Of a stretch of DNA of 64,000 bases, positions 1 through 45,372 are shown in pieces. How positions within the stretch are numbered: the stretch's first letter is position 1; every line of letters starts with the position of its first letter. The DNA is taken from positions 10,772 to 74,771 of the forward strand of contig CAYRXH010000005.1 of assembly GCA_964428185.1 (NCBI GenBank), given 5' to 3'. This DNA is from an uncultured Bacteroidales bacterium. GTDB taxonomy: Bacteria; Bacteroidota; Bacteroidia; Bacteroidales; DTU049. The notes under the pieces are model-generated. The model saw nothing but the letters and a program-made list of their open reading frames with translations. It was not told the DNA's origin and made no database searches. Position numbers and translations under genes: made by a program.

Positions 1-3000
1 TATTCAAAATTCTGGCGATAAAATAAAGAATATATATGATGTTGATCCTGCAACATTAAAAAGATATGATATTGATGAAGGTAAAGTAGGAGAAATTCAG
101 CAAAAGGCAAGTTCTGCTTGGAATATGGCAGGATTTTTTAATTATCATAATAGTCATTCTAATAATGTTCAAGAAACCCCAACAGCAAGAAAAATTGCTA
201 GTGCTACTGGACATAAATTTAATTATGGAGATTATGTTTCTACTGACATATATATGACTGATACACCTGGTATGTTGTTTGGCATGAGATATATGACTGA
301 TGAAGAATTAGCAGAGTTAAGGGATACTAAGTGGAATAAAGAATTGATAAAAAAATATGGTAAAGATTTAGTGAATTATTCGGCAGATGGTGCTGGTGAA
401 ATTGTAACAGTTAATGGTGAAACGCTTTTGTTATGGAAATCATTAACGTATGATGAAAATGGTATGCCACATTGGGAATGGGTGGATTTAAATAATTCTC
501 AAATACAAGGTCGTTTAAGACCTATATATGGACCAACTCCAATGTCAAGAACAGGATTTGGGGCATTTTCTAAAGGTTTATTTAATGTTATTGCTCAAGT
601 ACCTTCTATAGTTGGTTCAGCTATGGAGCAAATAGAAAATGCTATACTGTTAGGAGTTGATGAATTTATTGATTTGAACCCTAATGAATATTATATTGAA
701 AGTGTCGATGATAAAAGACCTTCTTATCTTTTACAAAATTTATCAGGAATGTTTATGTTCCATAATAGTTACAGAGGACAGCTTGATAGTTCATTTGGTA
801 GTGAGGGGTTTATGTTTAGTGCTGGAAATGTGATTGGTCAAGTTGCAGTTATGATAGCGTTATCAGCATTTTTAACTCCTGCGGCTGGATATTTATATGC
901 TGGTTTGAGTGCTGGCGATTCATTTAATCAAGTAGCAAAAGAAAGTAATGTTCCTGTTGATCAAAGACTTGCTATGTATGCTGGTAGTGTGATAACAGCT
1001 TTAGCTGTTGAAAGATTTGGTAGAATGATTGGATTAAGTCCTTTTGAACAATTTGGAGTAAGATCTGGCGTGTATAAAGGAATTACACAATATGCAAAAG
1101 AAATGGCGGAAAAGAGAACGGGAATTACAATACAACGAATGTATGAGGCATCTTTGAAGGATAAGAAGATATGGCAAAAATTATATATGAAAAATTTTTA
1201 CAAGCAAACATTTTCAAAATATGCCATGTATAATGCAATGGGTTCAGTGGAGGCGACATTAAGGCAATCAACTGGAGAAGGATTAGAAGAAGTTATGCAA
1301 CTTCCGCTTGATAATTTAATGTATGCTGTTCATGATTATGTAAATCAAGAAGAAATATTATATAGTCAAATAGCAGATGTAGAAGAAAGTAAGAGAAAAT
1401 TTTTATTGGATTATGATTATCGTGACAGTATGCTTAGAAATTATGTAAGAAATACATTTACATTAGGAAACATGTCATCACACTTTATACTAGGTTTTAT
1501 AGGTGGTTTAGGTGGTAGTTCAGTTGGTATGGCAATTAGAAAGTTGTCAAAAGACCCTAGCATAAAGAATCATAGGGAAATGAATTTGCTTACATTATAT
1601 ATGATATCTAAAGGCAATATAGAAAAGATAGAGAAAGCGGCTAAAGAATTATATTTAGGAAAAAAAGGAGGAAAAGCTCCATTATCTTTTACTCATACAG
1701 ATGGAACTACGCCAGTTAATATAGGAGATAAAAGTTTAAATGAAATAGCATATGAAGCATTTTTACAAGATATTAAATCTGTAAAACATATAATTGAAGA
1801 ATTAAAATTAAATTCTTTTAATATTAATGGGTCAATGGCTAGAGATAAAGAATTTTTACATGACGTATTAAATTTAAGTAATGAATACTTTATAGCTAAG
1901 ACCAAAGTAGAAAAGTTAAATGAAGAAATAGCAATATTACGTAATGAAAAAGGAAATGAAAGTACTATACAGTCTAAGGAAAAGGAGCTTGCAGATGCTA
2001 CTGCAAATATGAACGATGTTAAATCTAAAATACATGAATATACAACACCTGAATCAAACAGAAAACCATTTAGTAAACAAGCAAATGATAGAATAAGGGC
2101 ATATGCTTATGCAGAAGAAATATCTAAACAACAGTTAAAACAATTACGTGATAATCATGAGAAACTGTTAAAAGAAAAAAAGATAAAACCAGGAAGCAAA
2201 AAAGAGAAAGAGTTATTGCATAATATTGCATTAGAGGTTATGCAAAGTATGCCTAAATATAATGAAGTAAAGAAAACATGGACTAGTGTTGGTGAAAATT
2301 TTAATAAAGATGTATTAGAAGACCATAATAATAGTGTTAATGAGTTAGTATCAATATTTGATTCAATTGAGATTAGTATTTCTGAAGCACTTAAAAAAGC
2401 AGATCCTAGTGTTAATCTTAGTGGTGTACGTTTATCATCTATTATTGAACAAGGTAATATGTTACTATCAAGGATAGCAGAAAGAAAATATATTGATTTA
2501 CATAAGCAATTAGCAGCATCAGAAGGAATGGAATATGTTGTTGATCCAGATTTAGATGTAAGTGATTTAACATATGAAGCAGCACTTGAATTAAGAAATA
2601 ATATAAATAAAACATTTAGCGATAAAGGATTAAGATATTCTAATAAAGATGATGCAAATATTGATTTAATAAATATATTAGAATTGTATGCAGGTAAAGG
2701 AGGACTTGTTATTGATGGAAGTACTCAAAATGGACAGATATTGTTGGATTTATTAAGTAGAAATGGTTTTGAGTTTAATAGGATTTCAAAAGAAATAGAT
2801 AGTGGCAAATTGCCTGGTATAGAGAAAAATATTAATCATGTAGATAGCAATATTAGCATATCTAGTCCTGGTAAAGAAGGAAATAAATTGAATTTTTATG
2901 TTGCAGATTCATCCAAAATGTCCATTGAGGAAATATTATATTTACGTGGATTAATGATATACAATAACGTAAGAAATAATATTTTGGATGAAAATGGAAA

Positions 3001-6000
3001 TGTGAAAAAGGTAGATGTAGATATTGAGGCTAATATGATTGCATTAGATAATGTGATAGATGCATTAGCATTAATAAAAGCTAGGAGAGTATTTGATAGT
3101 GCGATGGGCAAGGTTAAAGAAAATGTACTTGATTTTCGTCAGGATAAAGATGGAGAAAGAATATATGATGAAGATGTACTTACTAATGATGATAAGATAG
3201 CAAATGAAGCTATAAAAGAAGAAATAGAAGTTTTAGAAAATGATGTTAATAAACTTATAGAACAATTAAAAGAAACAGATGTATATAAAAATTCTATAGC
3301 TGAAATTATTGCTTCATCAGAAGCTAAGAGAAAATTAGGTTTTTGGATAACAGCATTAACAGATGGTAATGAACCTTTGACAGCTGGTGTTCAGTTGTTA
3401 AAAAAAGCAAAGATTGGCAATATTGAATATTTGATAAAAGAGCTTATTGGGTTTAATAAGAAACTCATTAGAGAAGAAAATGAACTTAGAGAAAATGGAT
3501 ATAATACAGATAAAATGTCTCAAAGAAATAGAGTATTAATTAATAGTGCTATTGAAGTATTAGAAAGAGCAATATTTAAAGCGTACACAGATGTTGAAAA
3601 TCCTGGTGCAAAAGAATATATTAAAGAATGGATTAAGTTGCAGATGGATATCTATTTTACCCCAGTGATGAATGATAGTAATTCAAAGAATGTTTATTTC
3701 CTTAATTATTTTAGAAATCATATGGCGTATAATATAGTGGACCCATTACATCAAGGAGTGTCAAGTATAAAAGACGCATTTACTGAAGGTAAAAAAGCAC
3801 AAAACTATAATCCATCATATCATTGGATGGTTAATTATTTGCACACTATGATTAATAGTGATATGAGTTTACTTAAAAATAATATAACTTCAGCAATAGA
3901 AAATTTAAATACATATATTCCTTCACTTGAACAACAGTTAGTACAGATTTATATACAATCTGTTTTACAAAAAAAATATATTGATGACTTTGTTATTCAA
4001 TATGATATGGGAAAATATAAGCAAGCTATAGGAATGGTAGATGAGAATGGAGAAGTTGTAACTATAGAAAAAGCTAAGGAAATATATGCAAAGATGCAAG
4101 ATGGAAACTTAAAAACGGAGTATGCAAAGGTTATAGCAAAATATGAATCATCAATGTATCCTAAGTTTGAAAACGATGATACTATGTTTATGAATCATGG
4201 TGTAACATTAGTAGGAAATGCAGGAACTGGTAAAACAGAGATGACAGGATTAAGTGCGTTGATATATGCAATTAATAATGGGTTAAGTCATGTAAAATTA
4301 TCTGTTGTAGCGTCTGATATAGATTTGATAGAAAAGATTACAAATTCTATTAATAGAGTATTTGGAGAATATAATAAAAATAGTGAACAAAAAATAACAT
4401 TTGAAGTTAAAAAATCTTTATTGCAAGATGTATTATCTAAAGATGGTAATTCTGATGATAATTCATACATTATTAATTCATCTGATTTGGTTATTTTAGA
4501 TGAAGCAGGAAGATTGGATGATCAAATGTTGAAAAAAATAAGAAAATTACATAAAGCATCAAATATTAATAAACATACTGGATTTTTATTTTTAGGAGAT
4601 AATCAACAGATACAAGTGCATCCAAAAGATATGTCTGCTCAAGCATCAGGGATGAATGTAGCTATGCAAACAATTCATACTATGCCATTACAATATTCGT
4701 TTAGGAGTGGTAATACTATAATAAGTGAACTGAACAGGTGGTGGGGTGAAAGAGTATTTTCTTCACAATGGGTTGGTAATCTTGTTCCTACGCCTCCTAC
4801 AATGTATTATGAGGAATCATCTGATGGTATAAGAGATGGTGGTAAATATTATTCTTCAATAGATGAAATTGTAGAAGATTATATAAAAAGAAGAAAAGCG
4901 ATTGGTGAAAAAGCAATAATTGTATTTGAAACACAAGAAGCATTTGATGAGTATAGGAAAAAACATCCAGGTGTATTTAGTAATGATATAAGCGGAGTAA
5001 GGGTACTATATAATAATTTGCTTAGCACTGACCCTAATTTGTTACGTTCTATTCAGGGAGGAGAAGTTTCAGAAGTATATGTAGCAATAGAACCTGCAGA
5101 TACTCGTAATAGATTAGTGCCTGTTGATAAGACTGTATATCCAATGATGATGACAACTGCAACATCTAGGGCAATGAGATTTGTTGGTTCAATCATGGAT
5201 AATGCTAAATCATTAAATAAAAAAACAGATAAATCTTTTAAGATATACGAAAAACCTACTTCAGATAAAATTAAAGAAATAGCAGAAGCTAATAAAGAAT
5301 TAATAAGATTAGAAAATAAAAATGAGTTTCCAGACCTTCATCGTATAGTATTTTATAGTAGATATAATTATTTGTATGAAGACGAAGGAAAAGAGGAAGA
5401 CGAAGGAAAAGAGGAAGACGAAGGAAAAGAGGAAGACGAAGGAAAAGAGGAAGACAAAGGAAAAGAGAAAGACAAAGGAAAAGAGAAAGACAAAGGAAAA
5501 AAGGAAGGCGAAGGAAAAGGGAAAAGAAAATCTACAAATAAAAAAACAAAGAAAGAAAATAAAAAGAATTTTATTTTTCAAGAATCAGGATATAAAGCAA
5601 TGGCATATATTAATGGAGAATCAGTATCTGTTACTGTATTATTCCATTATATGGAAGGAGATGTGGAAAAGGTAATGACAGCAGAGCATGGTCCTTTATT
5701 AATTGATAATTTAATTGAAAAAAATCCAATAACAGAAGAAGCATATAGATCAGATACATATGTTAGTAGAGATAATTATAATTATGCAATAACGCCAGGA
5801 GTAGTATCAGAATCTGATTGGAATAAGGTATCATCAAAAAATAAACTTGTATTAGGCAAAATAAAGGCTATTAAGACAAAATTATTACAGGGTGCATATG
5901 ATGGGTCACTTTTAAAAGATTCTTCGTCTAAAGTCATTAAAATAATATATTCAAATATTCCCGAAAATTATGTAAATGCTGTTAGTCATGAATATAAAAA

Positions 6001-9000: not shown

Positions 9001-12000
9001 GTTGGATATTTTGGAAAATTATGTTAAGTATTCGGGTGCTATAGGTAATGTAATGCATAACAGTAGCGGTCGATTTTTGCCAGTTACTGTTGCAGGTTTT
9101 TTAACATCTGTGCAATTAGGTACTCAAGGACAATACATAAAAAATCTTATTAGTAAGATTAATAAGACTACTGCAGGACATCCTGTTAGAGATGGGGGTA
9201 TTGGACAAGCAATAGATTTTGTTTCTGATTTATGGATTCCTGTGTTTAGAAGTAGAGACCCAAAAAATATAAGTAATGGTTTACAAAAGAAAATAGATGA
9301 TTTAATAGGTGTTCTTAAATATAATGATATATATTCAAAAGAACTTGAAGAAAAAATAACACCTGTACTTAATTCAATTAAGGAAATATCTCAGTTTTAT
9401 AGAGAATTAATTGAACAATTTAGAGGTTCAAAAAATTTAACCTCTGATATAGATATAATGAATGTTCCTGAAGAAGATATTAATGTTGAAGAACAAAGAA
9501 ATAATATTACTCCATCTCCTTTGAATTTTGATATTACTTTTAATGTTCTATATGAAGTTTCACATGAGATGAAAATGTCACATAACAAGAATTACAGAAT
9601 TGATGGTACTGTTGATGCATATAATGTTCAAAGTGGTAATTCAGCAAAAGTTGTAAAGCAATTTGTAGGAAGTAGGGCACTTCCAAAAAAATATTCAAGA
9701 TTAAGAAAAGCAAAAGCAGAAGTTCGATATGCTTCAGAAAATAGAAATAGAGCATTAACTATGTTATTTAATCCTCTATTTCCTAGTGATAATGATGATC
9801 CACTGATTGATGTATATCAAATGGCGCATGTAACAGATTATGTAGAATATGGAAGGGGTGTTACTGATATGGAGCCAGGAGATGCTTTAATGGCAGAATT
9901 AACAGCTGTTATTACAGGATTAAAAAAAGATGATGCTATTATAGGTAAAAGTGTGTTTGGAGATAATAATCATCTATTTTTATATGAAGTTGAAGGTAAT
10001 ATGAAATATTATCTCCTTCAAGCATTAGCAGAGACTACTAGCGGAAAACCAATAAATTTAAATGAGAATGTATCATTAAATAATCCTATGAAATATACAT
10101 TGAAATTGTTAAAAAACGCTTTTATGTCATGCCATGTATCTCATGTCAATAGTGTTTTAAATTTATTGGATTCAATGAAGTCATTGCTTGTTAAGACCAA
10201 TATAGAAAGTTCAGCCAAAGGAGAACAAGATTACCTTATTGAGTTAGGTCTTGTAACAGGTCTTATTGAATATGTAGGAAAATTTGCGGTTTATAGTAAG
10301 AATCTTGAAGAAACAGCACACGAATATCATTTCAAGGATGTTATACTGAGAATGAATGACATATTAAAAAGACTTGAAACAATTTATGGAGATTCTAAAA
10401 ATACGTATGATAAGTTATTGGAGATGGGAGCAGTGGATGGTAAAGACATAAAATTATCTAATGGTAAATTAATTTTAGGTACAGCAGCTTCATTTAATAC
10501 ACAATCAGTATATAAAGAGAAAGGAGGATTTGAAAGATTTACAGTAGATGATTATGTATATAATGGTGTGAGCATGTATGGAACAGATAAGACAGAATCA
10601 ATAATGAAGTTCAATCCTACTACCATGAAAGAAGCTACAGATAAATTATGGGGGATGTTTGGGGTAGAAATGAATATTTATCAAAATTATATATATAATG
10701 TATTAAAACAGAATAGAACAAACAAAGATGTTAATAAGTTCTTTAGTTCAATAATTGGAACTGATGGTTCAGGAGTTATATTAAGAAAAGGAACAAATGA
10801 AGCTCCTATTTATAATCCTGGTATGTTTTTTTATTATTTGTATTATCATTTTGTTAATCAAGCAATGGATCATGCAATATCAGGGCATGCATTTAATTAT
10901 ACATCTCCAGAAGTAAATTCAATAAGAAAGAAAATGTTTGAAACTCCAGGAGAAAATGCAACTGCATCAGAAACAGGATTAGGAGAAACATATAAAGTAG
11001 CAATATTAAAAGATACAGAAATACCTGTAATGGTAGAAATGTATAATATGGCTGTAGAAGATTCAGAAAAGGTTACTGTTGAAGAAATAGCAACAATAAC
11101 GGATGGTGCTTCAATAGATACAGCAATAGGTAGAATGTTATTATTGAACAGTTTTGGAAATAAATTATCAGGATTAACAGCTACAGCATTAAAGTTTGCT
11201 TATGCAGACTATAATTGGCATACTGATGAAGTTGTTATTAAAAAAGATAGTCAATTATCTATTACACCTGAAGATGTATTACTATCTCCTGAAAAACATC
11301 TTGCATTAGAATATATTGCTTTAGCTCAATTCGATAAGTCGTTGGCAGATAAATTTATTGAAATATATAGTGATAATGTAAATAAAGGAAAAAGAAGGGA
11401 TCATGCATTTGCTGCTGCTGTGGAATATGCATATAATGTTATACAGGATATGCGAAAATCAAATCCAAAAATAATAGAAAATGTTATTGTTTCAATAACA
11501 CATCCTTCTGCTATTAAAATAGGTGCAAGGAATGTTAATAATATTACTTTGGATAATATTTTAGAAGCAAAACAACTAAATACAATTAGTCTTCATACTG
11601 AAAGTTTAAGAATGATTTTTAATCCTGATAGTGAAATTGAGAATAGCAGAGGTGAAGTATTATTTAAACAGGCATATCATTTAGGAAGCGGAGCACTTAA
11701 TCCTGATGATGCATTACAAATGGAAACTGAATTATCTGTGGCTATATTAAAGTCAATGGAAAAATTAGGGATGAATAAAGATGGTAAGTTGGATGAAGCC
11801 AATTTTACTGCAAAATCTATTATGGAAAAAGCATTGTCGAAAACTAGAACAGGGATGGAACAAACTATGACAGTTGGAACTGCAATAGATTTATTAGATG
11901 CCACAAGAAAACGCTTTGACTTGATTCAATTTGCTAATATAAATTCTAAGGTAATACAGTCATTAAGTAAAATGATAACAGAATCATCTGCTAAAATAAG

Positions 12001-24273: not shown

Positions 24274-24304
24274 AAAAAAAAGGTGCTGAAAAATATCAGC
24301 ACCT
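24274..24304 (-). terminator. Intrinsic terminator at the convergence of the rightward and leftward blocks (potentially bidirectional)
   Basis: 9-bp stem AGGTGCTGA (24281-24289) / TCAGCACCT (24296-24304) with a 6-nt loop. An A7 run precedes it on the + strand, which gives a T-run after the hairpin on the - strand. Confidence 0.75.
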
Positions 24305-24397
24305 TAATGGTTAACAATATAACATGAAACACAATTATTATCGAGTAATGAATAAATATAAAGTTATATTTATTCAAACATTGATAATAAATCATTT

Positions 24398-24643
24398 TTA
24401 ATCTTGTTTTATCAAAATAAGTTTGCTTTTGTAACCTTTGCTTAGTTTATAATATTCGTCTGTTGTCATAAACTGATTCCAATCATTGCCTGTCCACCAA
24501 TAGGATTGGTCGAATTCTTCTTGTATCATCGGAAATGTTCTGTACTTTATTCCGTCAACTTTGAAGGTGTGGGTACGTTCTTTTCGGTTGGAACTGATGA
24601 ATTCAAACTCTCTTTTAGTAATACTTTGTTTGTATGTTTTCAT
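24398..24643 (-). CDS. Hypothetical protein (81 aa), last gene of the leftward block
   Basis: ORF with its own consensus promoter 34 nt upstream and the terminator downstream. Confidence 0.55.
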   Translation of the reverse strand: MKTYKQSITKREFEFISSNRKERTHTFKVDGIKYRTFPMIQEEFDQSYWWTGNDWNQFMTTDEYYKLSKGYKSKLILIKQD

Positions 24644-24676
24644 TATTTTGATTTTTTAGGGTTATTAATTATGATA

Positions 24677-24708
24677 CAAATATACAACAATTAATTTTAA
24701 TATCCAAA
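24677..24708 (-). promoter_or_regulatory. Bacteroidota-type promoter (-7 TATATTTG, -33 TTTG)
   Basis: On the - strand, TATATTTG (24677-24684) matches TAnnTTTG. TTTG (24705-24708) lies 20 nt upstream. The ATG is at 24643. Confidence 0.55.
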
Positions 24709-24717
24709 TTTTAGTTG

Positions 24718-25005
24718 TTAATTATATGTTAAAGTTTTTTGTTTTGAATTAAAGAAATTAACTACTCTTAACACATCAACGAAGCAGCACGTCTCTCTTG
24801 TCTGTTCATTATAGACAAGCTCTGAACGTGTTACCTTATAATTCCAACCAAACCCGATTGCGCCGAACACTTCAGTCATCTTCTCAATCCGCCATTGCGG
24901 ATTGATGTCTGTCTTACCTCTCAGCCGTCCGCCATCTATTACACGCTGTGCATCTGAAGGGACTTCTCTTAATTTTTTGTATAATTCTAAATTTTTTGTT
25001 TCCAT
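24718..25005 (-). CDS. Rad52/Sak-like single-strand annealing protein, N-terminal fragment (probably a truncated remnant)
   Basis: LREVPSDAQRVIDGGRLRGKTDINPQWRIEKMTEVFGAIGFGWNY resembles the N-terminal half of Rad52-family phage annealing proteins as I remember them. Composition switches from GC-rich to AT-rich at about 24771, and the ORF stops 17 codons later. Confidence 0.4.
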   Translation of the reverse strand: METKNLELYKKLREVPSDAQRVIDGGRLRGKTDINPQWRIEKMTEVFGAIGFGWNYKVTRSELVYNEQTRETCCFVDVLRVVNFFNSKQKTLTYN

Positions 25006-25020
25006 AATATTTAATTTTTT

Positions 25021-25839
25021 TTAATAAAATAATTCAACAAACTTATTATCTTCGTTTAACACGTATGTTGTGTCTGGTAGTATGCCGTCTTTGCCTACAT
25101 AACCTTTGACAGGCTTATAGGTGTCTTCATTAGCATCATAATAATCCAGCGATAGCACAGACCCGTTACCACCCCTCACACTTGAACCTACTCCGCCCTT
25201 AACTATTGAGTTGTCGCCGCCGACAACACCTGAATAGAGCCCGCCATATAATAATGATTCATTGCCACCAATGACAATAGACCCGTTGCCGCCCATGACA
25301 ACAGACCCGTTGCCGCCCATAACCTTAGACCAGTCAAGTCCTGCTACTATTGTTTCATCACCACCTACAATTAAAGAGAAGTTACCCGCTTTCATATACG
25401 TTAATTTTCCGCCGATAATTACAGCGTAGTCACCACCTATAGCCTTCTCTCCAATGCCTAACCTAACGATTGCACCAATTATACCTATGTGCCCATACAC
25501 GCTTGCAATAAGTTCTGTAGCTGTCAGTCTATCACCCACATACACTACTGTGCCCCCTTTGAACTTTATTAGTCCGTCCAGTGGTATTATGCCTGCTTCT
25601 TCTACTTCAAGAACAACCCATAAGGCTTCATCGCTCCAATCGAACAACGTACCATCACCACATCCCTTTAACGCTCCGTGCAAGCCGTTACCACATTCAG
25701 GGGTAAGCTCCCAGTCGGGAGCTTCTACCCAGCCTGATTGTGGATACTGAAAGCCTTTACGTGAACGATTGTTCTTGTCATTAGTCCGCAACACTAATAC
25801 GTGTCCGTCTTTTACTTTGAATTCTTTTTTTGTTTCCAT
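25021..25839 (-). CDS. Octapeptide-repeat solenoid protein, GC-rich paralog (12 GGxxSxhx units)
   Basis: I prefer the start METKKEFKVKDGHVLVL (25839), which is homologous to the starts of the 37377..38453 and 38528..39277 products. The N-terminal domain, repeats and C-terminal cap are shared. Confidence 0.8.
   Translation of the reverse strand: METKKEFKVKDGHVLVLRTNDKNNRSRKGFQYPQSGWVEAPDWELTPECGNGLHGALKGCGDGTLFDWSDEALWVVLEVEEAGIIPLDGLIKFKGGTVVYVGDRLTATELIASVYGHIGIIGAIVRLGIGEKAIGGDYAVIIGGKLTYMKAGNFSLIVGGDETIVAGLDWSKVMGGNGSVVMGGNGSIVIGGNESLLYGGLYSGVVGGDNSIVKGGVGSSVRGGNGSVLSLDYYDANEDTYKPVKGYVGKDGILPDTTYVLNEDNKFVELFY
25150..25437 (-). repeat. 12 uninterrupted octapeptide units (GGDYAVII ... GGNGSVLS)
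   Basis: Read directly from the translation. Confidence 0.9.
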
Positions 25840-25903
25840 GATTTTTTTTTGGTTATAAATTACATTCCACTGCAATAGTGGCACAACTCTTTATTTTCAA
25901 CTT

Positions 25904-26428
25904 CTACCGAGAACATACATCGCATACATGCTCATCACCATCAGTGGCATGCAGCTTGTGAGCGTGCAATCCGCATGTGTCACACACACGTAAGTTAAGG
26001 TTTTCGGTGCAAGATGGACAATAACGTGAACCATCTATTGCATCGTTCATTGTGTACTTGTATATGTATTTTTCGCATCTGTCGCATACTATGCAATACT
26101 TATGCAAGCAATCTTCGCAATAGTCACCGTCACTTGTTTTGAAAAGGGTTGTGTGGAGATATTTACAGCAATTGCACAAGGACAGGCCACGTTTCTCAGC
26201 GCAATCCGCACAAAGGGGGTGTTTGTTGTCTATCCATGCAACATCATCTTCATAAAAGTTTCCTTCGCAGCAATCGCAAGCAACAAGCCCCATCTCATCG
26301 TAACAACTCCAACATGCGATACCTCTTGGGGTATCATCATAGAAATCAATACTTACATTTATGCTTCTTCCGCAGATTTCACATTTGATTTCTTTGTCAT
26401 TAATTTCAATTTCATTTTTTGTTTTCAT
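25904..26428 (-). CDS. Protein made of five tandem zinc-ribbon (CxxC...CxxC) units
   Basis: CEIC..CWSC / CDCC..CADC / CNCC..CEDC / CDRC..CPSC / CDTC..CDVC, each unit about 33 aa. GC-rich. Confidence 0.7.
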   Translation of the reverse strand: MKTKNEIEINDKEIKCEICGRSINVSIDFYDDTPRGIACWSCYDEMGLVACDCCEGNFYEDDVAWIDNKHPLCADCAEKRGLSLCNCCKYLHTTLFKTSDGDYCEDCLHKYCIVCDRCEKYIYKYTMNDAIDGSRYCPSCTENLNLRVCDTCGLHAHKLHATDGDEHVCDVCSR

Positions 26429-26530
26429 AATTTTTAGATTTATTGGGGTTATTAATTTTTTTTGTTATTAGTATGTTCCTTTTTGTTTGTATGTTTTTAT
26501 GTTCATAAATTTATTTTATAATTGATTAAA

Positions 26531-26995: not shown

Positions 26996-27496
26996 TTAAT
27001 TAACAAAACTCATTAACAAGTCATGTATTATACTTTGGTCATATAAATTATATGATTTAGAATACTTTGAATAATTTAATGTAATTGTATTTATTTTGTA
27101 ATTTATTAATAATTTTAAATCATGTTCAGATAATTCACATATAAATGGAGGAACACTATTGTCAGTTGGGCATATAGGTTCATTTGCAATATCTGTAAAT
27201 AGTTTAAATGACATATTATTTACAAAGTTAATTTGAATAAATGAATGTTTTGTTATGCAACCAAGATAATCATCATGAGAGATAAAATATAATAAATAAA
27301 CATAACCACCACCCTTTACACAGTTACATGCTTCCACAGCAAAACAGTATAATTTGTCATCTTCACTAATTGATATTATGTCTGTTCCTCTCCACATAAT
27401 ATCTTCTTCAACAAAAACTTCACATTTTGTAATTGGATATTGTGCAAACAAGATGTGAGAATAAATAAATAATAGTGTAAATAATAAATTTTTCAT
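26996..27496 (-). CDS. Secreted hypothetical protein (signal peptide)
   Basis: The N-terminus MKNLLFTLLFIYSHILFAQ looks like a cleavable signal peptide. Confidence 0.55.
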   Translation of the reverse strand: MKNLLFTLLFIYSHILFAQYPITKCEVFVEEDIMWRGTDIISISEDDKLYCFAVEACNCVKGGGYVYLLYFISHDDYLGCITKHSFIQINFVNNMSFKLFTDIANEPICPTDNSVPPFICELSEHDLKLLINYKINTITLNYSKYSKSYNLYDQSIIHDLLMSFVN

Positions 27497-27508
27497 AAAT
27501 AAATATAA

Positions 27509-27760
27509 TTAAGGGTTTGACAAATAGGCTTTACCAACATCTGTTATATCATAAAATATAACATCTTGACTTATTTCAACAGGAGATATTGAAGATGTAT
27601 AATATAATATTTCAAAATCTAAACTTGTAATACGATATTGGTTTTCTAATTTAAAATTAATCAATGATGTTGAGTTTTTATCTTTTGCAATAGTATAACC
27701 ATTGATTAAATATTCAAGTATCCATAATTGTTTTTTTAAATCCATAAATGTATGAATCAA
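27509..27760 (-). CDS. Hypothetical protein (83 aa)
   Basis: ORF only. Confidence 0.45.
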   Translation of the reverse strand: MIHTFMDLKKQLWILEYLINGYTIAKDKNSTSLINFKLENQYRITSLDFEILYYTSSISPVEISQDVIFYDITDVGKAYLSNP

Positions 27761-27789
27761 ATAATAATTTTTTTAAGTTACATAATTAA

Positions 27790-28017
27790 TTAATTTAAGC
27801 TGACAAAACAAAATTTATTATTATTTATCCAGTTTTTAATTTTATTTTCTGATTTAATTTTATCACCTTCAGATAATATATAGTTATTTGTTTTGAGATT
27901 TTCTTTGTCAAGCCATAAAATTTTATCAGTAATAAAGTCGTAATAACATTTCCATAACGAGTTGTATTTGATAAAACTTACTGTAACTAAATTGTTTTTT
28001 ATGAAATATTTATTCAT
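27790..28017 (-). CDS. Hypothetical protein (75 aa)
   Basis: ORF. It shares a 4-nt ATGA overlap with the upstream gene. Confidence 0.45.
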   Translation of the reverse strand: MNKYFIKNNLVTVSFIKYNSLWKCYYDFITDKILWLDKENLKTNNYILSEGDKIKSENKIKNWINNNKFCFVSLN

Positions 28018-28217
28018 ATGATAAAAGAAATTAATTCGATAGTATCTTTTTTTACATATCTCATATTACTCTTAATATAGTTATATTTATTTTTTTGAAA
28101 TGGAGTAATAATCAATATAATTAAAATAGTATTTACATAAAATAGTCCTGCTGATAAAAATATCATTATTATACTTGGCAGTAACATAGTGTATTTTAAT
28201 AAATAATAATAGAGCAT
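28014..28217 (-). CDS. Small membrane protein (two TM segments)
   Basis: LLPSIIMIFLSAGLFYV and TILIILIITPF are hydrophobic stretches. Confidence 0.45.
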   Translation of the reverse strand: MLYYYLLKYTMLLPSIIMIFLSAGLFYVNTILIILIITPFQKNKYNYIKSNMRYVKKDTIELISFII

Positions 28218-28244
28218 AATGTTTTTTTTACAAAGTTAGTAAAT

Positions 28245-28505
28245 TTATTTTGTTAGAAATTTTAATAAGTCGTAAACAAATTTGGAATTGTAGTATCTAC
28301 TGTTGTTTATTGTTAAATAAACAGATTCTTTAGTGAATTTCATAAAAAGAAATTCAGCATTAGCTTCATTCATAATTCCGTCATAACAAATGTAATTGTT
28401 TAGTAAAATTCCAACTATATACCCATGAATATATAGGTCATGAAAGCCATCATAGCAAATATATCCATGAGTATTAATAGCTGAAATATTAGAGGTTGTG
28501 ATCAT
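28245..28505 (-). CDS. Hypothetical protein (86 aa)
   Basis: ORF. It overlaps the upstream clamp-like gene's 3' end by 4 nt. Confidence 0.45.
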   Translation of the reverse strand: MITTSNISAINTHGYICYDGFHDLYIHGYIVGILLNNYICYDGIMNEANAEFLFMKFTKESVYLTINNSRYYNSKFVYDLLKFLTK

Positions 28506-29932
28506 AACATTGGCATTAGAAGAAATTTATCATCAATAACAATAGCATCACTATTTTTCAAAAACTTAAATGATAGAGAACCATTACAATGTTTTAAAAT
28601 TGTCAGCATAAATTTATGGTTAAAATTGATGTTAAATAATAAAGATGAATCTGTGTTAGTTTCAGTATCGACAAAATAATTTTCAAGGTTTTTCAAATCT
28701 TCTTGACTTCCAAAATGAATTAATTTGTCTGGTTGTAATATTTTATATTCATAGTGAGAATCTGTAGATGATTCATCTTTATGACAAATTCTTTGCATTA
28801 CACTATATTGATTTATTTCATCATCACTGTTAATAATAGAATTTGAATCGACATAAAATACATCTTTTATATCTTTAGTGCAAATTTTTAGTGATTTAGG
28901 ATTTAGTAATACTATTTTTTCATCATTTGTTTCAGCAAAAACATTTGAATTATCAATTTTGTTAAAAACATAGTATTGATATTTAGCAATGTTCATATTT
29001 GTAATACTGTTTATTTCATAATAATTTTCTATTATATAAGAATAGAATTTATTAAATTGAATAAAAGTATTTAATTTGTTTTTATAAAACAAATTCTGTT
29101 CTATATCAGGTGCGTTAACTTGAAAGTGAGTTGGATTTAATAAATCAATTGTTAGTGTAATTTTATCAAGTGTATTAAAAGATTTAATATCATTTAATAT
29201 ACTTTTAAGTTTTTCTGTTTCTATAACAGATTTAAACATAAAAGAATTAGGGATAACACTTTTAACATTTAATTTGTGAGGTGTTACATTGTTGATTCTA
29301 ATCCATACATCTTTTAGTTTAATATGAACATAATAATCATCATCATTTGTTTTGCTAAAAGTAAATGGAATAATTTTACAATCTAATAATTTAATAATCT
29401 TTTTAAGTGAATTAGGAATTGTAATATTAAAGTTAGTTGTTTTAGGTAAATAATCATAACACATATAATGTGCATCAGTGCCAACAAACATATCTTGGTT
29501 TATGATTATACCACATAAAGTAGGTTTTAAATCATCATTAGATGTAAAATCAAACATTCTTAATACTTTGTCTTTTGAAAGGTTAATATTTTCAGATTCA
29601 ATAAATTCTGGGTCTTTAAATAATTCATTAACAGATGAAAATTCATTTTTATTAATATCAGTTAATTTTATATTTAATACCTTATTTGATAATGTAGATG
29701 AATCTGGATTGAATGTAAGATTTGTATTGTTTGATGTGACAATTTGTTTAAGAGTTTTTAATGGAACATTGAATTCATGTTCATAATAATCATTAAGAAA
29801 TATTTCAATATATATTTTACGATTAGTATATCTAATTATATTTTCTTTAATATAAACATTATCTGAAAAATCTGATTTAAAGTGTTTGCTATAAGCACTG
29901 TCAATTAATTTAATTGCTTGTTTTAAATTCAT
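28502..29932 (-). CDS. Divergent DNA polymerase sliding clamp (DnaN/beta-like)
   Basis: DDLKPTLCGIIINQDMFVGTDAHYMCY parallels rp.L.Gv.i...l..vATDGHRLA. NITIPNSLKKIIKLL, and PHKLNVKSVIPNSFMFKSVIETEKLKSILNDI parallels fPdy..viP...v....l...l. Confidence 0.5.
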   Translation of the reverse strand: MNLKQAIKLIDSAYSKHFKSDFSDNVYIKENIIRYTNRKIYIEIFLNDYYEHEFNVPLKTLKQIVTSNNTNLTFNPDSSTLSNKVLNIKLTDINKNEFSSVNELFKDPEFIESENINLSKDKVLRMFDFTSNDDLKPTLCGIIINQDMFVGTDAHYMCYDYLPKTTNFNITIPNSLKKIIKLLDCKIIPFTFSKTNDDDYYVHIKLKDVWIRINNVTPHKLNVKSVIPNSFMFKSVIETEKLKSILNDIKSFNTLDKITLTIDLLNPTHFQVNAPDIEQNLFYKNKLNTFIQFNKFYSYIIENYYEINSITNMNIAKYQYYVFNKIDNSNVFAETNDEKIVLLNPKSLKICTKDIKDVFYVDSNSIINSDDEINQYSVMQRICHKDESSTDSHYEYKILQPDKLIHFGSQEDLKNLENYFVDTETNTDSSLLFNINFNHKFMLTILKHCNGSLSFKFLKNSDAIVIDDKFLLMPML

Positions 29933-29943
29933 AGTTTTGAATA

Positions 29944-30525
29944 TTAAAGATTAAAGAATAATTTTACTTCAAACAATCGTCTTTCATATATTCTACGATT
30001 ATTCATATTAAAACTTGTCCATGAATTAATAATCAAAGATGTATCATAATTTGGAATAATGTTATATTTTTGTTCAATAAGATGATTGTGAAAAGTTGAA
30101 TTACGAATAGCAGATGGTTTAACATTATAGTATAACATTGCCATTGCTAATGCTTTGTTTCCTGTTAAGAAGTATGTTTTAGATACATAAATTATGCGTT
30201 TATGAAAATCTGAATTTAATAATGAATCTGCTTCATGTAAAGAAATATTATCAGGCTTATATGGATATTGATGTCCATATCCTATGTACCAAAATGTATC
30301 ATTTGGTAATTGATATGGTTCTAATCTTAATCCTTCATATTTCTTTATATTTTCAATAGCTAAATCATAATTTACGTTATTAAGAACAAGATTTATATCA
30401 TATTCTTTACTAATTATATTTTTAGGAAGTTCGTTATTTATTAAATATGATATAAAACATAATCCTGAAATAAAAATTGCTATTACTGTAAGGAGAAAAA
30501 ATGAGACAATGTTTTTATTTTCCAT
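29944..30525 (-). CDS. Membrane-anchored GH24 (T4-type) lysozyme
   Basis: IKKYEGLRLEPYQLPNDTFWYIGYGH matches the T4 lysozyme EGLRL..Y.D..G..TIG.GH block. An N-terminal TM segment IVSFFLLTVIAIFISGLCFISYLI is present. I prefer the MENKN start at 30525, which overlaps dnaB by 11 nt. Confidence 0.7.
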   Translation of the reverse strand: MENKNIVSFFLLTVIAIFISGLCFISYLINNELPKNIISKEYDINLVLNNVNYDLAIENIKKYEGLRLEPYQLPNDTFWYIGYGHQYPYKPDNISLHEADSLLNSDFHKRIIYVSKTYFLTGNKALAMAMLYYNVKPSAIRNSTFHNHLIEQKYNIIPNYDTSLIINSWTSFNMNNRRIYERRLFEVKLFFNL

Positions 30526-37376: not shown

Positions 37377-38453
37377 TTATTTTTTGTTTTTGTGGTTATT
37401 TTGTTTAATGGTAAAATTATTATTATTATCAAGAATATATTCAGTATTTGGCAATATATTGTTTTCACCCACATAAACTGTGACAGTCCTAATAACATTA
37501 TACGAATCTCTGTATTCAAGTGATAACATTGAATTATCGCCGCCTTTAACACTCGAACCGATACCACCTTTTAGTTTGGAATTATTGCCACCTGATATGA
37601 TAGAATGGTCACCACTGTTAATAATAGTATCATTTCCACCACTTACTATTGAGCCATAATCTGTTGTAATAAAAGAATAATCACCACCTTGAACTTCTGC
37701 CCAGTTTCTACAAGTAATAACAGATCTATTACCTCCTGTTGCTGTGGATTGCATGCCTCCTGAGATTACAGATTCATTACCACCTGTTATTATTGTGCCA
37801 GAACCACCTGTAATGAATGAATTATTACCTCCTTCAATAAAGGATTTATTACCTCCTGTAATTGTTGAATAGTTTCCACCTTTAACTTTTGACCAGTGAC
37901 CTCCTACGATTACAGAATCATTACCACCTGTAACAGTAGAGCCATTCCCTCCCCTAATAATAGACATGTTGCCGCCAGTTACTTGAGAAAGGTCGCCTCC
38001 TATGACGTTAGAAAAATCACCTCCTTTGATTATAGAATAGTCTCCTCCAACAGCAACTTCTCCGTTACCTACAACAATTGTAGCTCCTATTATACCTATA
38101 TTACCATAGACATTTGCTATAATGTTTGTAGCTGTTTCTCTATCTCCTACATATATTACATTGCCACCTTTAAATTTAACTTTACCATTAAGGTCTATGA
38201 TTCCTTTTTCTTTTACTTCTAATACCATCCATAATGCATCATCGTTTGTATAAAATAAAGTACCATCACCTCGTCCTTTTAAAGCACCGTGCAAACCTTT
38301 GCCAAAAATAGGTGAAGGATTCCAATCAGGTGCTTCTACCCAACCTGACATAGGATATTGAAAATGTTCAAAATTGGAACAATTATTTTTATCATTTGTT
38401 CTTAATACTAATACATGACCTTTTTTTACTTTAAACTCTTTTTCTCTTTTCAT
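37377..38453 (-). CDS. Octapeptide-repeat solenoid protein (22 GGxxSxhx units)
   Basis: Its N-terminal domain is homologous to the 25021..25839 and 38528..39277 products. It has 22 uninterrupted octads (aa 136-311) and the conserved C-terminal cap. Confidence 0.85.
   Translation of the reverse strand: MKREKEFKVKKGHVLVLRTNDKNNCSNFEHFQYPMSGWVEAPDWNPSPIFGKGLHGALKGRGDGTLFYTNDDALWMVLEVKEKGIIDLNGKVKFKGGNVIYVGDRETATNIIANVYGNIGIIGATIVVGNGEVAVGGDYSIIKGGDFSNVIGGDLSQVTGGNMSIIRGGNGSTVTGGNDSVIVGGHWSKVKGGNYSTITGGNKSFIEGGNNSFITGGSGTIITGGNESVISGGMQSTATGGNRSVITCRNWAEVQGGDYSFITTDYGSIVSGGNDTIINSGDHSIISGGNNSKLKGGIGSSVKGGDNSMLSLEYRDSYNVIRTVTVYVGENNILPNTEYILDNNNNFTIKQNNHKNKK
37521..38048 (-). repeat. 22 uninterrupted octapeptide units (GGDYSIIK ... 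GGDNSMLS)
   Basis: Counted in the translation. There are no indels between units. Confidence 0.9.
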
Positions 38454-38527: not shown

Positions 38528-39277
38528 TCAACAATTTAATGAAAAATTATTGTTTATATCTAATGTGTAATATACATTTGGTCTTAGTCCATTTTCTCCA
38601 ACCTTTGCAACAAAAGATTTACCAACAGAATTTTTTAGTATTATGGTAGTATTATTTCCCCCAGATGCTATTGTTCCATAGTCTCCTATTATTATTGAGT
38701 CTTCTCCAACTTTTACTTCACAATATTTATCTGCATATACAACTGAACTGTTACCTCCTGTTATTGTTGAGTTATGACCTCCCATTATAGTTGTATCATC
38801 TCCTCCTTTTAATATAGATTCACCACCTCCTTTTATTAAACAGTTATTACCACCTGTTAAATTTGACATATAACCTCCTGTTATTATTTGAATATCTCCT
38901 GTTGTTGCTTCCAATCCTATTACTCCTATGTTACCATATACATTGGATATAATAGTTGCTGCTGTTCGCATGTTACCAGAATATAATATAGTACCCATTC
39001 TGAAACGTACAAAACCATCATATTCTATTATATCTTGTTCAGATACTTCTAATACTGACCATATTGAATCTTCACTATAATTTAATAAATGTCCATTACC
39101 ACAACCTTTTAACATACCTTCTAAACCACCAATACGTGTTTGTGAATAAAAATTTTCGTCTTCTATAATTCCTAATCTCGGAAATTGAATACCATGACGA
39201 GAACAATTATTTTTGTCATTTGAACATAATACTAATACATGACCTTCTTTTAACTGAATTTTATTTATTGTTTCCAT
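38528..39277 (-). CDS. Octapeptide-repeat solenoid protein (10 units)
   Basis: METINKIQLKEGHVLVLCSNDKNNCS..., octads at aa 134-213, C-terminal cap VGENGLRPNVYYTLDINNNF. Confidence 0.8.
   Translation of the reverse strand: METINKIQLKEGHVLVLCSNDKNNCSRHGIQFPRLGIIEDENFYSQTRIGGLEGMLKGCGNGHLLNYSEDSIWSVLEVSEQDIIEYDGFVRFRMGTILYSGNMRTAATIISNVYGNIGVIGLEATTGDIQIITGGYMSNLTGGNNCLIKGGGESILKGGDDTTIMGGHNSTITGGNSSVVYADKYCEVKVGEDSIIIGDYGTIASGGNNTTIILKNSVGKSFVAKVGENGLRPNVYYTLDINNNFSLNC
38639..38878 (-). repeat. 10 octapeptide units (GGYMSNLT ... GGNNTTII)
   Basis: Read from the translation. Confidence 0.85.
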
Positions 39278-40070: not shown

Positions 40071-40289
40071 TTAGTCATGAATCAGGTGAAAGGGGATAAC
40101 AGCTTCACATGCAGAGATGATTTTGATATCGTCTTCGAGTTGAAGAAGGATGTTGATATCGTCGTTAGTCATGTCCATAAAAGCGATATTAGCAATATGA
40201 TATGCATTTATGGTGTCATGATCTGATGAACAAGAAAGATTACTTTCTTTTAGATCATGTTTGATTTGGAAGTTTTGTTTTGTTTTCAT
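40071..40289 (-). CDS. Small acidic hypothetical protein (72 aa)
   Basis: ORF with 12 Asp/Glu against 5 Lys. Confidence 0.4.
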   Translation of the reverse strand: MKTKQNFQIKHDLKESNLSCSSDHDTINAYHIANIAFMDMTNDDINILLQLEDDIKIISACEAVIPFHLIHD

Positions 40290-40527: not shown

Positions 40528-40893
40528 TTAATTGACCCGAAATTCCACAAATCTTCCTTTCTTGACAACAAGACTTCCATTGACGGGTATCAGTTTCCCT
40601 TCAGTATCTTCAGTCAAGACTTTCCTGCTGTAAAAACTCAGTAAAGCTCCATCCATCTCCATATTGAGCCAAAAATAGTCGTTTCCATTGACATTCTTCT
40701 TGACATCGGAGATACTTGCATTACTGTACAAATAAGTACCATCCTTCAAACGTAAGTCCATCTGAGTTGTCCCATCAATACCACACTGAGGGATCATTAC
40801 CTGATTGATTGGCTGTTGTGGTACAGCCTGATTTGCAAACTGTGCATAATTTCCATAATTTGCAAATTGTCCATTTGTTACTTGTGTTTCCAT
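40528..40893 (-). CDS. Hypothetical protein (121 aa), GC-richer than its surroundings
   Basis: ORF with a Q/N-rich N-terminus (QFANYGNYAQFANQ). A terminator lies directly downstream. Confidence 0.6.
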   Translation of the reverse strand: METQVTNGQFANYGNYAQFANQAVPQQPINQVMIPQCGIDGTTQMDLRLKDGTYLYSNASISDVKKNVNGNDYFWLNMEMDGALLSFYSRKVLTEDTEGKLIPVNGSLVVKKGRFVEFRVN

Positions 40894-40982: not shown

Positions 40983-41285
40983 ATGGCGTTATATATTTTC
41001 ATTTATATTATATCAATTATATCTATCATATTGTGGTTTTGTTTTATTCATATATTATTTATTATATATTTCAATTATTATATATATGTAAAGTTTCACT
41101 ACGTTGTTTGGTGTAAAGTTTAAGATTTCCCGACTTTAAAATCAGGAAATTCCGTCCGCATACCATTTATTACTCACTTGCGGAAATAGAACATGAAGTC
41201 ATTAAATCAATTTGCATTTGGAAAGTGGTACGAACTTAGCCCTAAAATTTTTTCAGAAAACCACTTCAGTATAAAAATAAAGTAT

Positions 41286-41349: not shown

Positions 41350-41718
41350 ATGAAAGTATTATTGTCCATAAAACCAGAGTTCGCTTTCAAAATCTTTGAA
41401 GGCAAAAAGAAATTTGAATTTCGTAAAGTAATTTTCAAAAATCCAAATGTAAAGACAGTTGTTGTTTACGCGTCATCACCTGTTCAAAGGGTCATTGGAG
41501 AATTTGAAATTGCAGACATCCTAAGTTATGACCCAAGTGAAATTTGGAGACAGACAAAAAAATATTCAGGAATTTCAGAAGATTTTTTCTATGAGTATTT
41601 CGCGAATAGAGAAATTGCACACGCAATAAAAATTAAGAATCCCAAAAAGTATAAACAACCATTACACTTGCAAGACAACTACAATGTTGTTCCGCCACAA
41701 TCGTATGTTTACTTGTAA
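41350..41718 (+). CDS. ASCH-domain (PUA-like) protein
   Basis: MKVLLSIKPEFAFKIFEGKKKFEFRK...VVVYASSPVQRVIGEFEI...IWRQTKKYSGISEDFFYEYF...AHAIKI matches the remembered ASCH pattern (LSIKPeya.kI..G.K..EfRr ... iYat.P...ivG.f.i). Confidence 0.6.
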   Translation: MKVLLSIKPEFAFKIFEGKKKFEFRKVIFKNPNVKTVVVYASSPVQRVIGEFEIADILSYDPSEIWRQTKKYSGISEDFFYEYFANREIAHAIKIKNPKKYKQPLHLQDNYNVVPPQSYVYL

Positions 41719-43030: not shown

Positions 43031-43378
43031 TTATCGTTGACTCATGTATTTAGTAACTGTATGCTCAAATTCCTCGAAGCTGTTACAAACAGCAACCATA
43101 TATCCTGCATAATACAGTTTTGTGATTATTTCAGTTTGTGATTTAGTTGGTTTGTTATTTCCTGCCTTTAGCTCAATAAACAATCCTGCATGCACCTTTG
43201 TCTGTTCGGCAATGAACAGGTCAGGGACTCCTGCAAGCACACCCTCTGCCTTCATCCTTACAGCGGTAACCTTGTTCCTATGCCCGCCGTTGGGTATGGC
43301 AAAGATAAGGCTATCGGGGTACTGATACCTGAACCACCTTACACATGCCACTTGTAAGTTATGCTCTCTTTGTATCAT
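43031..43378 (-). CDS. VRR-NUC domain nuclease
   Basis: EHNLQVACVRWF...FAIPNGGHR......MKAEGVLAGVPDLFI....GLFIELKAGNNKPTKSQ..I...L...GY.VAVCNSFEEF fits the VRR-NUC layout (PNGG, G.PD, ElK, Q). GC-rich. Confidence 0.65.
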   Translation of the reverse strand: MIQREHNLQVACVRWFRYQYPDSLIFAIPNGGHRNKVTAVRMKAEGVLAGVPDLFIAEQTKVHAGLFIELKAGNNKPTKSQTEIITKLYYAGYMVAVCNSFEEFEHTVTKYMSQR

Positions 43379-43382
43379 GGTA

Positions 43383-43754
43383 TCATGTTATATTATTCCA
43401 TGTTCTTCCGTCGTAAGTAACGACGTTATTAAACAAATCAATAATTATGCTATCATCTATCCAATCAAACTCATAAATATATTTATTTAATAAGCACATA
43501 TTTATTGGGCTTATATATAAATATCTGTTTTCACGAGCCATAAGAATAAGTTTAATAAAATTCATAAATTCTTTTATTATATATCTTTCTGCAGGATTAA
43601 CTCCATAAAATGTTTTTTCTTTATTACCTAAAAAATGAAGTTCTACTTTGTATTTTCGGACGTTGTACTGAACAGTAGAATACATTGTTGCAACCTTTAT
43701 ACCGTTATGATTGTAGGTTGTAAGGTTTCGTTCTTCTTTTTTTTGCAAAATCAT
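43383..43754 (-). CDS. Hypothetical protein (123 aa)
   Basis: ORF with a 4-nt overlap with the upstream gene. Confidence 0.5.
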   Translation of the reverse strand: MILQKKEERNLTTYNHNGIKVATMYSTVQYNVRKYKVELHFLGNKEKTFYGVNPAERYIIKEFMNFIKLILMARENRYLYISPINMCLLNKYIYEFDWIDDSIIIDLFNNVVTYDGRTWNNIT

Positions 43755-43981
43755 AAGTACCTCCTGACTGTTAATTCTGCTTCTGTTAATTTCCTTCTGG
43801 GGGGTCTCTTGGTGTAATTAAGGCACATAACCGCTGTGGCGTTGTCTATCAAGACAGGATTATGTGGTGACAACACGCAATTATTAGCCACGCCCCTGCT
43901 AATGTGGCAATGAACACATGTTAAGCAACACTTGATGCGTGTGCCCTTATCAGTCACGTATTGCTGTGCCTTCAGGAGCAT
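43751..43981 (-). CDS. Small Cys-rich hypothetical protein (76 aa)
   Basis: KCCLTCVHCH...NNC...MC. GC-rich. Confidence 0.45.
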   Translation of the reverse strand: MLLKAQQYVTDKGTRIKCCLTCVHCHISRGVANNCVLSPHNPVLIDNATAVMCLNYTKRPPRRKLTEAELTVRRYL

Positions 43982-43984
43982 CGA

Positions 43985-44215
43985 CTATTTTTTTAGAATT
44001 CTAAAAACCTCGTCTGTCGTTGTCCCTATGTATTCAGCAATTTGTTCCACCCACTCTGCCTTGAAGATGCGTACATCTTCGTTCATGAGTTTGCGGAATT
44101 GTTCACGCCCCGAAGGGGTGTTGCTGTATAGCATACGCCACAATTCTCTCTTGCACGTCCGCCTGTCTATGCCTCTGTCTCGGCAATAACTTACTATATT
44201 TCTGATTTTGTACAT
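43985..44215 (-). CDS. Small helix-turn-helix-like protein (76 aa)
   Basis: The C-terminal VEQIAEYIGTTTDEVFRILKK looks like an HTH. GC-rich. Confidence 0.4.
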   Translation of the reverse strand: MYKIRNIVSYCRDRGIDRRTCKRELWRMLYSNTPSGREQFRKLMNEDVRIFKAEWVEQIAEYIGTTTDEVFRILKK

Positions 44216-45340: not shown

Positions 45341-45372
45341 CAAAGATACAATAAAATATAAGGCAATACAAA
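45341..45372 (-). promoter_or_regulatory. Bacteroidota-type promoter for the leftward block (-7 TATCTTTG, -33 TTTG)
   Basis: The - strand reads TATCTTTG (45341-45348). TTTG (45369-45372) lies 20 nt upstream. The motif sits about 100 nt upstream of the ATG at 45237. Confidence 0.5.

Follow-up and report, generated by a model that had tools for sequence, protein, structure and literature searches.

Phage genomes are known to carry mosaic accessory modules, or morons, the "more DNA" units of the HK97/HK022 type (PMC3594210), and relaxed recombination between phages has been described as a source of mosaicism (PMC3945230). Phages are also known to encode Rad52-like single-strand annealing proteins (SSAPs), such as Sak of the lactococcal phage ul36 and its relatives (PMC2896510, PMC3945230). 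Here we analyze a G+C-rich island at 24.4-26.4 kb of a 64,000-nt stretch of metagenomic phage DNA (the window; bases 10772-74771 of the 77.8-kb contig C5, 28.3% G+C), whose coordinates are used throughout. In the direction of reading, on the minus strand, the island consists of a zinc-ribbon gene, a β-solenoid gene with a DUF7666 domain, the 5′ part of a Rad52-like annealing gene within an open reading frame (ORF) of 95 residues (aa), and an 81-aa gene (Table 1). We consider it probable, with a likelihood of about 75%, that this DNA was imported from one or two phages of intermediate G+C into the end of the leftward operon of the recipient. The island is an instance of ordinary phage mosaicism and moron acquisition, a known process that is unusually well resolved here, and it calls for no new mechanism.

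Like the described morons (PMC3594210), the island is foreign in base composition relative to its flanks, lies at the end of an operon where it disrupts nothing, and carries small genes of unknown function that are spread among unrelated phages; moreover, its 81-aa gene has its own predicted promoter and terminator. It differs from them in that this full layout is seen in the last gene only, the other three being embedded in the operon, in that the recipient is not a lambdoid temperate phage but a divergent crAss-like virus, and in that one of the imported genes is broken. The abrupt joint inside a gene, between two unrelated sequences, is also what relaxed recombination (PMC3945230) produces, although for the island no homologous or microhomologous partner is demonstrable.

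The G+C content in 300-nt windows rises from 0.20-0.30 to 0.42-0.47 between ~25.0 and 26.4 kb. A two-change-point likelihood fit over 22-29 kb placed the core of the island at 24772-26331 (G+C 0.429 versus 0.248 outside; log-likelihood gain 91.7), with edge ranges of 24753-24787 on the left and 26323-26398 on the right, and this core is the highest 1.56-kb G+C window of the entire contig, lying 4.8 standard deviations (SD) over the mean (runner-up 0.349). The shift extends to codon usage, as the G+C content at third codon positions (GC3) of the island ORFs is 4.9-6.2 SD higher than that of 33 other phage genes (mean 0.161, SD 0.037, maximum 0.237). In a synonymous-codon likelihood comparison, a codon model built from 245 long ORFs of the 38%-G+C bacterial genome with which C5 was binned (GC3 0.345 ± 0.039) outscored the phage model by 14.7 to 42.1 log units in each of the four island ORFs; among 13 control ORFs the phage model was preferred in 12 and the thirteenth scored +2.4. 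The initial annotation, made from the sequence alone, had described 24.40-26.43 kb as GC-rich, and both measures bear out a strong shift, but the rise in bulk G+C starts at about 24772 and not at 24398: the 81-aa gene, with a bulk G+C of only 0.33, is atypical at third codon positions alone, and it is set apart from the core by a 128-nt AT-rich spacer defined by 30-nt G+C values and the change point. Richness in glycine and cysteine was considered as a cause of the high G+C and ruled out by GC3 and by the AT-rich resident solenoid paralogs. Amino-acid composition does not explain the island, because these paralogs of the same family have GC3 values of 0.18 and 0.10, compared to 0.36-0.47 along the full length of the island copy.

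The 95-aa ORF fixes one recombination joint to the base. It had been suggested to resemble Rad52/Sak-type proteins for about 78 residues and then to turn AT-rich near 24771, 17 codons before its stop, and both suggestions hold, with homology covering residues 1/5-78, a change point at 24772 and a fall in GC3 from 0.41 in codons 1-78 to 0.056 in the final 17. Its nearest named relative is gp39 of Ruminococcus phage phiRg519T2, a 200-aa protein annotated as a Rad52/22 family SSAP, to whose residues 3-74 it matches by tblastn. It also aligns to positions 1-65 of phrog_7838 (expectation value, E, 2.9e-14) and phrog_7792 (E 2.7e-14), families of 242-255 positions. Among 1.84 billion representative proteins, 1460 matched the ORF (732 at E<=1e-10; the best 59% identical), most of those listed being 200-280 aa long, and their alignments stop near query residue 78-80, while in 80 viral loci found with the family alignment 67 alignments finish exactly at residue 78. 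The conserved core of the family reaches to approximately residue 145; the window ORF covers profile positions 1-74 of 192, is missing the GTGGS and KMALTDA blocks and has no similarity to any family member beyond "FVDVL". Relative to the described Rad52-like SSAPs, residues 1-78 are 48-59% identical to the N-termini of members, but the ORF holds only about half of the ~145-residue core and is without the GTGGS loop, strand β3 and the KMALTDA helix. The suspected truncation is confirmed by this alignment to full-length proteins.

Two other accounts of the short ORF were rejected. It is not a normal short member of its family, as no family of ~95 aa was found and the short database matches are heterogeneous broken fragments with unrelated tails. 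Nor is its C-terminal half encoded elsewhere, as in a split or frameshifted gene, since tblastn of 12 full-length members against the whole assembly recovered nothing beyond residues 1-78, whose match ends at 24772, and detected a C-terminal piece in none of the frames. Protein homology stops at the G+C change point, 24772, and because the drop in GC3 falls there as well we read this position as a recombination joint and not as the product of decay in place.

No Pfam or NCBIfam model recognises the Rad52-like family of the 95-aa ORF, and a sequence-profile search of the PDB for it found nothing. An AlphaFold2 model of a full-length homologue (the L010 protein) was produced from a 37-sequence alignment and had a mean predicted local distance difference test score (pLDDT) of 81.6. 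The top eight PDB matches to the model were all the N-terminal domain of human RAD52 (probability 1.00, E 8e-7 to 7e-5, template modeling score 0.42-0.54), and the family is predicted from this to adopt the β-β-β-α fold of that domain. Residue 78 falls in the middle of a strand (residues 72-83) of the model and the long helix spans residues 114-131, so that the stump would be without half of strand β2, strand β3 and the long helix. Because these core elements are missing, the product of the 95-aa ORF could not, as judged by the modeled homologue, anneal DNA or be an annealing protein, with the consequence for annotation that the ORF should not be named a recombinase.

In many full-length members of the family (L010, L012 and others in our alignment, A2), the annealing core is followed by a C-terminal CxxC...CxxC zinc ribbon. 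Of the stump's 150 best relatives, 42 are likewise broken. Thirty-five breaks lie at profile position 73 or later, and 17 of these fall within positions 73-84, directly behind the "FVDI" strand, the point at which the window copy stops as well. This cluster may reflect clustering or ranking bias, or a site that is really fragile or prone to insertion. The cluster is a hint toward a very unlikely reading, in which the stump is a retained and expressed mini-protein that poisons the Rad52-type ring assembly of competing phages, or a decoy for host defenses that sense phage recombinases (PMC11846896); bias could, however, explain the clustering.

The solenoid gene provides an internal control for the composition of the island, as one protein family is found at two codon compositions in one genome. 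Its start is likely the ATG at 25839, which was chosen because it is aligned with the starts of its paralogs. The 272-aa product matches PF24703 (DUF7666) over residues 15-111 at 27.8 bits (cut-off 27) and phrog_18079 over its whole length (E 9.1e-34), and alignment with the paralogs and 16 homologues showed uninterrupted 8-residue, Gly-rich repeats followed by a conserved C-terminal cap, YVGExGIxPN..Y.L. The proposed paralogy to AT-rich copies at 37.4-39.3 kb was confirmed for both resident genes there (identities of the island protein to its paralogs 44, 39, and 54%). In a tree of the N-terminal domain, the island copy groups with the two resident copies and two metagenomic proteins in a single clade (100/100 support), within which identities range from 67 to 76%. 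Over the N-terminal domain the island copy shares 76% identity with a foreign protein and 71% with the resident 358-aa copy, and the gene is therefore not a recent duplicate from within the genome, nor does it have a close known relative.

Named relatives in this family include Bbp36 of Bordetella phage BPP-1 and the "ice nucleation protein" of Burkholderia phage Mica, and other members sit among small early genes of unrelated phages. The island protein resembles the DUF7666/phrog_18079 proteins of BPP-1 and Mica in its N-terminal DUF7666, its variable-copy 8-residue Gly-rich repeats and C-terminal cap, and its position among early/accessory phage genes; it differs from them in belonging to a tight subclade and in being the only copy in the C5 genome with a codon usage of intermediate G+C. 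That the family moves between phages, as the initial annotation had proposed for phages and/or hosts, is upheld by the occurrence of one clade at two codon compositions and of relatives in unrelated phages. One of the 80 Rad52-bearing loci, L040 (IMGVR_UViG_3300013426_000044; 60% G+C), has clear solenoid genes nearby, with solenoids at 1-873 and 9544-10413 and a Rad52-like gene at 5001-5597, all on one strand and with the solenoids ~4.5 kb to each side; one other locus gave a single marginal match. Because L040 holds solenoid genes around a Rad52-like gene, an early-region slice with a solenoid gene followed by an annealing gene is a plausible arrangement for the donor. In 185,579 species genomes scanned with the clade alignment, the patterns used detected no member of the solenoid subfamily (the broader solenoid alignment was too divergent for scanning), and a scan of JGI metagenomes with the same alignment gave only one distant match, on a 1.6-kb contig. 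A literature search found no paper mentioning DUF7666. Within the island gene, 25262-25331 consists of three 24-nt tandem units that are 84-91% identical in DNA (GGNGSVVM/GGNGSIVI), which suggests recent gain of repeats by slippage. These units are reminiscent of the variable repeat region that is annotated over the homologous gene of Bordetella phage BIP-1.

The zinc-ribbon array that had been noted is present in the 174-aa protein as five CxxC...CxxC units, which are recognised by eye and by regular expression only, as the Pfam double zinc ribbon model (PF12773) scores 13.7 bits against a cut-off of 27.3. A single-sequence AlphaFold model of the protein had a pLDDT of 40 and was not used. 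A search with PADLOC gave no match to a defense system for any island protein.

The 81-aa protein has an 80-aa homologue in the oral Microvirus D_HF4_162 (45% identity, E 5e-15), encoded between the pilot and replication-initiator genes (L092 2965-3207). Further relatives occur in four IMG/VR viral contigs (L175-L178) of 6.5-39 kb and 36-42% G+C, and the family shares the motif W..DWNQF..TDEYY. The DUF7666 solenoid and 81-aa families therefore travel between very different phages, including crAss-like phages, tailed-phage contigs of temperate size and Microviridae.

Bacteroidota promoters have the consensus TTTG at -33 and TAnnTTTG at -7. A full match to this consensus had been reported upstream of the 81-aa gene and is found exactly at the reported position. 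A full match (TTTG plus TAnnTTTG) precedes just two of the 22 leftward genes that were checked; these matches are this one and the operon promoter at 45341-45372. None precedes the zinc-ribbon, solenoid or stump ORFs. Within the solenoid gene, 40 nt ahead of the 95-aa ORF, there is a TAAGTTTG box that lacks the TTTG element. The hairpin downstream of the 81-aa gene may terminate transcription in both directions, because an A-run precedes it. As promoter and terminator motifs flank the gene, we interpret the 81-aa gene as having the architecture of a moron, with predicted promoter, gene and predicted terminator.

Table 1. Features of the island and its edges, in window coordinates (GC3, G+C content at third codon positions; SD, standard deviations).
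Feature	Position	Strand	Remarks
10-bp hairpin with T-run	24280..24305	-	Convergent gap between rightward and leftward blocks; A-run precedes
81-aa gene, small family of Microviridae and tailed-phage contigs	24398..24643	-	GC3 0.366, 5.5 SD over other genes
AT-rich spacer, 13-20% G+C	24644..24771	.	Between GC-rich core and 81-aa gene; joint at upstream edge, 24772
Full Bacteroidota-type promoter match, TTTG-N20-TATATTTG	24677..24708	-	33 nt upstream of ATG of 81-aa gene
17 out-of-family codons plus stop closing the 95-aa ORF	24718..24771	-	GC3 0.056; inside AT-rich spacer
Remnant of Rad52-fold (predicted) single-strand annealing protein gene	24772..25005	-	Codons 1-78 only; ends in the middle of core strand β2; GC3 of whole 95-aa ORF 0.344
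272-aa DUF7666 plus octapeptide (GGxxSxhx) β-solenoid gene	25021..25839	-	GC-rich paralog of 37377-38453 and 38528-39277; GC3 0.385
174-aa protein with five tandem zinc ribbons, CxxC-16..20-CxxC	25904..26428	-	First gene of island; GC3 0.394
Leader motif TTAATAACCCCAA	26443..26455	-	Upstream of zinc-ribbon gene
~20-nt near-copy of first codons of 81-aa gene (ATAAAAACATACAAACAAAA versus ATGAAAACATACAAACAAAG)	26481..26501	-	1857 nt upstream of original at 24624-24644

The window has a rightward gene block up to 24254, a leftward block that starts at 45237 and ends at 24398, and a second rightward block from 45880 onward. Because the direction flips at 24254/24398, the island represents the 3′ end of a 21-kb leftward replication/early block, at a convergent junction. 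We propose that the distal end of this operon holds DNA that evolved at ~38-43% G+C and was joined to it by illegitimate or short-homology recombination. The core, from 24772 to ~26430, would be a slice of the early/recombination region of another phage, comprising the zinc-ribbon gene, the solenoid gene and the start of the annealing gene, and the downstream crossover would have taken place inside the annealing gene, so that codons 1-78 were kept and are now followed by 17 junk codons that run into the AT-rich spacer. No promoter match precedes the intact zinc-ribbon and solenoid genes or the stump, and all three are therefore presumably transcribed by read-through from the operon promoter at 45.3 kb. 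The 81-aa unit, of moron type and with its own promoter and the shared hairpin terminator, may have been acquired with the core or separately. We infer that the import is evolutionarily recent, for the sole reason that the island is not yet ameliorated. If this history is right, the convergent end of the operon is marked as a permissive landing site, and the locus offers a clean, internally controlled case of gene flow in a crAss-like lineage without sequenced relatives.

Several observations weigh against this import as we have drawn it. The donor was not found in any collection, the nearest foreign proteins being only 59% (annealing stump) and 76% (solenoid N-terminal domain) identical, and in none of the collections searched was there a related phage genome for comparison. 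The four island ORFs include no integrase or transposase and no convincing repeat flanks them. For the zinc-ribbon protein, searches of 5.8 billion proteins and of the phage collection turned up no homologue. The AT-rich first codons of the zinc-ribbon gene keep the right-hand joint from being placed more closely than 26323-26530, and the promoter motif is not enriched across the window (8 found versus 5.05 expected by chance).

It is quite possible, if short of probable, that the island records two separate events, a variant of the explanation above in which the 81-aa promoter-gene-terminator unit is an independent moron. Such a moron might have landed in an imported, intact annealing gene and deleted its 3′ part, or it might have come first, the core being joined upstream of it later. 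The 128-nt AT-rich spacer does divide the GC3-rich parts, the unit shows a complete predicted layout of its own, its relatives (the microvirus and contigs of 12-39 kb) are in different viruses than those of the core genes, and no 81-aa homologue occurred in the 80 Rad52-bearing loci. On the other hand, the 81-aa gene has the same GC3 (0.37) as the core genes, and a 13-nt leader motif, TTAATAACCCYAA, which occurs exactly twice in the window, is found upstream of the zinc-ribbon and 81-aa genes only, a hint at a common source. Its second copy (TTAATAACCCTAA, 24656-24668) is equally far upstream of the 81-aa gene, and both copies belong to a 42-nt repeat at 74% identity (family D12). The near-copy of the first codons of the 81-aa gene forms with its original a ~20-nt pair (repeat families D10 and D11) and a possible flanking direct repeat, for which we estimate that ~0.2 such pairs would be expected within 2.3 kb. 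Campbell-type insertion via this repeat was considered and set aside as statistically too weak in AT-rich DNA. The shared leader and the near-copy are suggestive of a joining of pieces and too weak to support a model of it.

Import from a phage or prophage of intermediate G+C also has to be weighed against direct capture of chromosomal, non-phage DNA of a Bacteroidia host during infection, which we think unlikely. The GC3 of the island ORFs (0.34-0.39) fits that of the binned genome, and a 51-nt phage stretch at 41085-41137 that is 96% identical to a host repeat makes some flow of DNA from host to phage plausible. However, tblastn of the island proteins against the rest of the 2.85-Mb co-binned genome revealed no homologue of any of the four genes, the scan of species genomes did not find the solenoid subfamily with the patterns used, and all homologues that were found lie in phage or viral DNA. 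Because the bin has no homologue and the three non-orphan island genes (all except the zinc-ribbon gene) match phage or viral-contig sequences only, a phage or prophage donor is likelier than the host. The initial proposal, that a module from a host-like genome or prophage had recombined in at the end of the leftward operon, therefore agrees with all the tests that could be run as far as import and location are concerned, while the host as direct donor is disfavored.

That the island is an assembly artefact, a chimeric join of two phage populations differing in G+C, is scarcely credible. The contig does derive from a metagenome bin, but both flanks of the island come from one phage, and the genes continue the spacing and orientation of the operon. 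The island shares no exact stretch with the remaining assembly longer than a 26-nt low-complexity run, which lies away from the boundaries, so that no repeat is available for a mis-join in the assembly graph, of which two would be needed 1.6-2 kb apart. Selection on native genes to retain G+C-rich codons (for instance, for high expression or nucleic-acid structure) is a formal possibility for any compositional island, with nothing specific in its favor here, and can hardly be entertained given that the presumed top-expressed genes (major head protein, 59140-60579, portal and terminase) have GC3 values of 0.14-0.18, the resident solenoid paralogs are AT-rich, and a truncated gene lies exactly at the composition change point.

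The recipient C5 is a phage, as it has genes for terminase, portal and major head protein, and it also has an ORF of 5,400 codons. Because its terminase is only ~25% identical to those of crAss-like phages (Azobacteroides phage ProJPt-Bp1, cr273_1), we place it as a very divergent crAss-like virus. The search for a related phage genome covered phage records, IMG/VR, protein databases and host-family genomes. Searching the DNA of the island plus 14 kb of flank against 50,697 phage records gave zero matches, and no DNA-level match to the island was found elsewhere in the collections searched; IMG/VR scans for close relatives with the solenoid, a 531-aa flank protein and the solenoid-clade alignment found none. 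The C5 terminase had no match among 22 other genomes of the host family, and in large protein-database searches a neighboring 476-aa clamp-like protein was a singleton.

The island is not unique in its composition, because other GC3-rich patches occur at 40.07-40.9 and 43.0-44.2 kb, and it appears to be one of at least three such patches in the leftward block, where imports would thus recur. The ORFs concerned are 40071-40289, 40528-40893, 43031-43378, 43751-43981, and 43985-44215 (GC3 0.34-0.52); 41350-41718 is also foreign-looking, and all six span a GC3 of 0.30-0.52 versus the phage mean of 0.16. A VRR-NUC-like protein (phrog_824, E 8e-43) is among the products of the high-GC3 ORFs of this leftward/accessory block. 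The genes directly upstream of the island (27000-30000) are the most AT-rich coding DNA of the window, at 20-22% G+C, so that the island abuts the compositional minimum of the phage.

The genome binned with C5 (2.85 Mb, 38.2% G+C, 94.7% complete) belongs to a member of the Bacteroidia, and its RpoB is up to 77% identical to the RpoB of Bacteroidia metagenome-assembled genomes. The sole DNA common to the phage contig and the bin is the 51-nt stretch at 41085-41137 (C5:51858-51908), the counterparts of which are at the ends of two contigs of the binned genome (C40 21660-21710 and C125 1-51). These counterparts represent a repeated element of the host, and the host assembly breaks off there; the element does not correspond to a tRNA and matches no Rfam family. 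Because this element is common to both, it supports the binned genome as the likely host of the phage.

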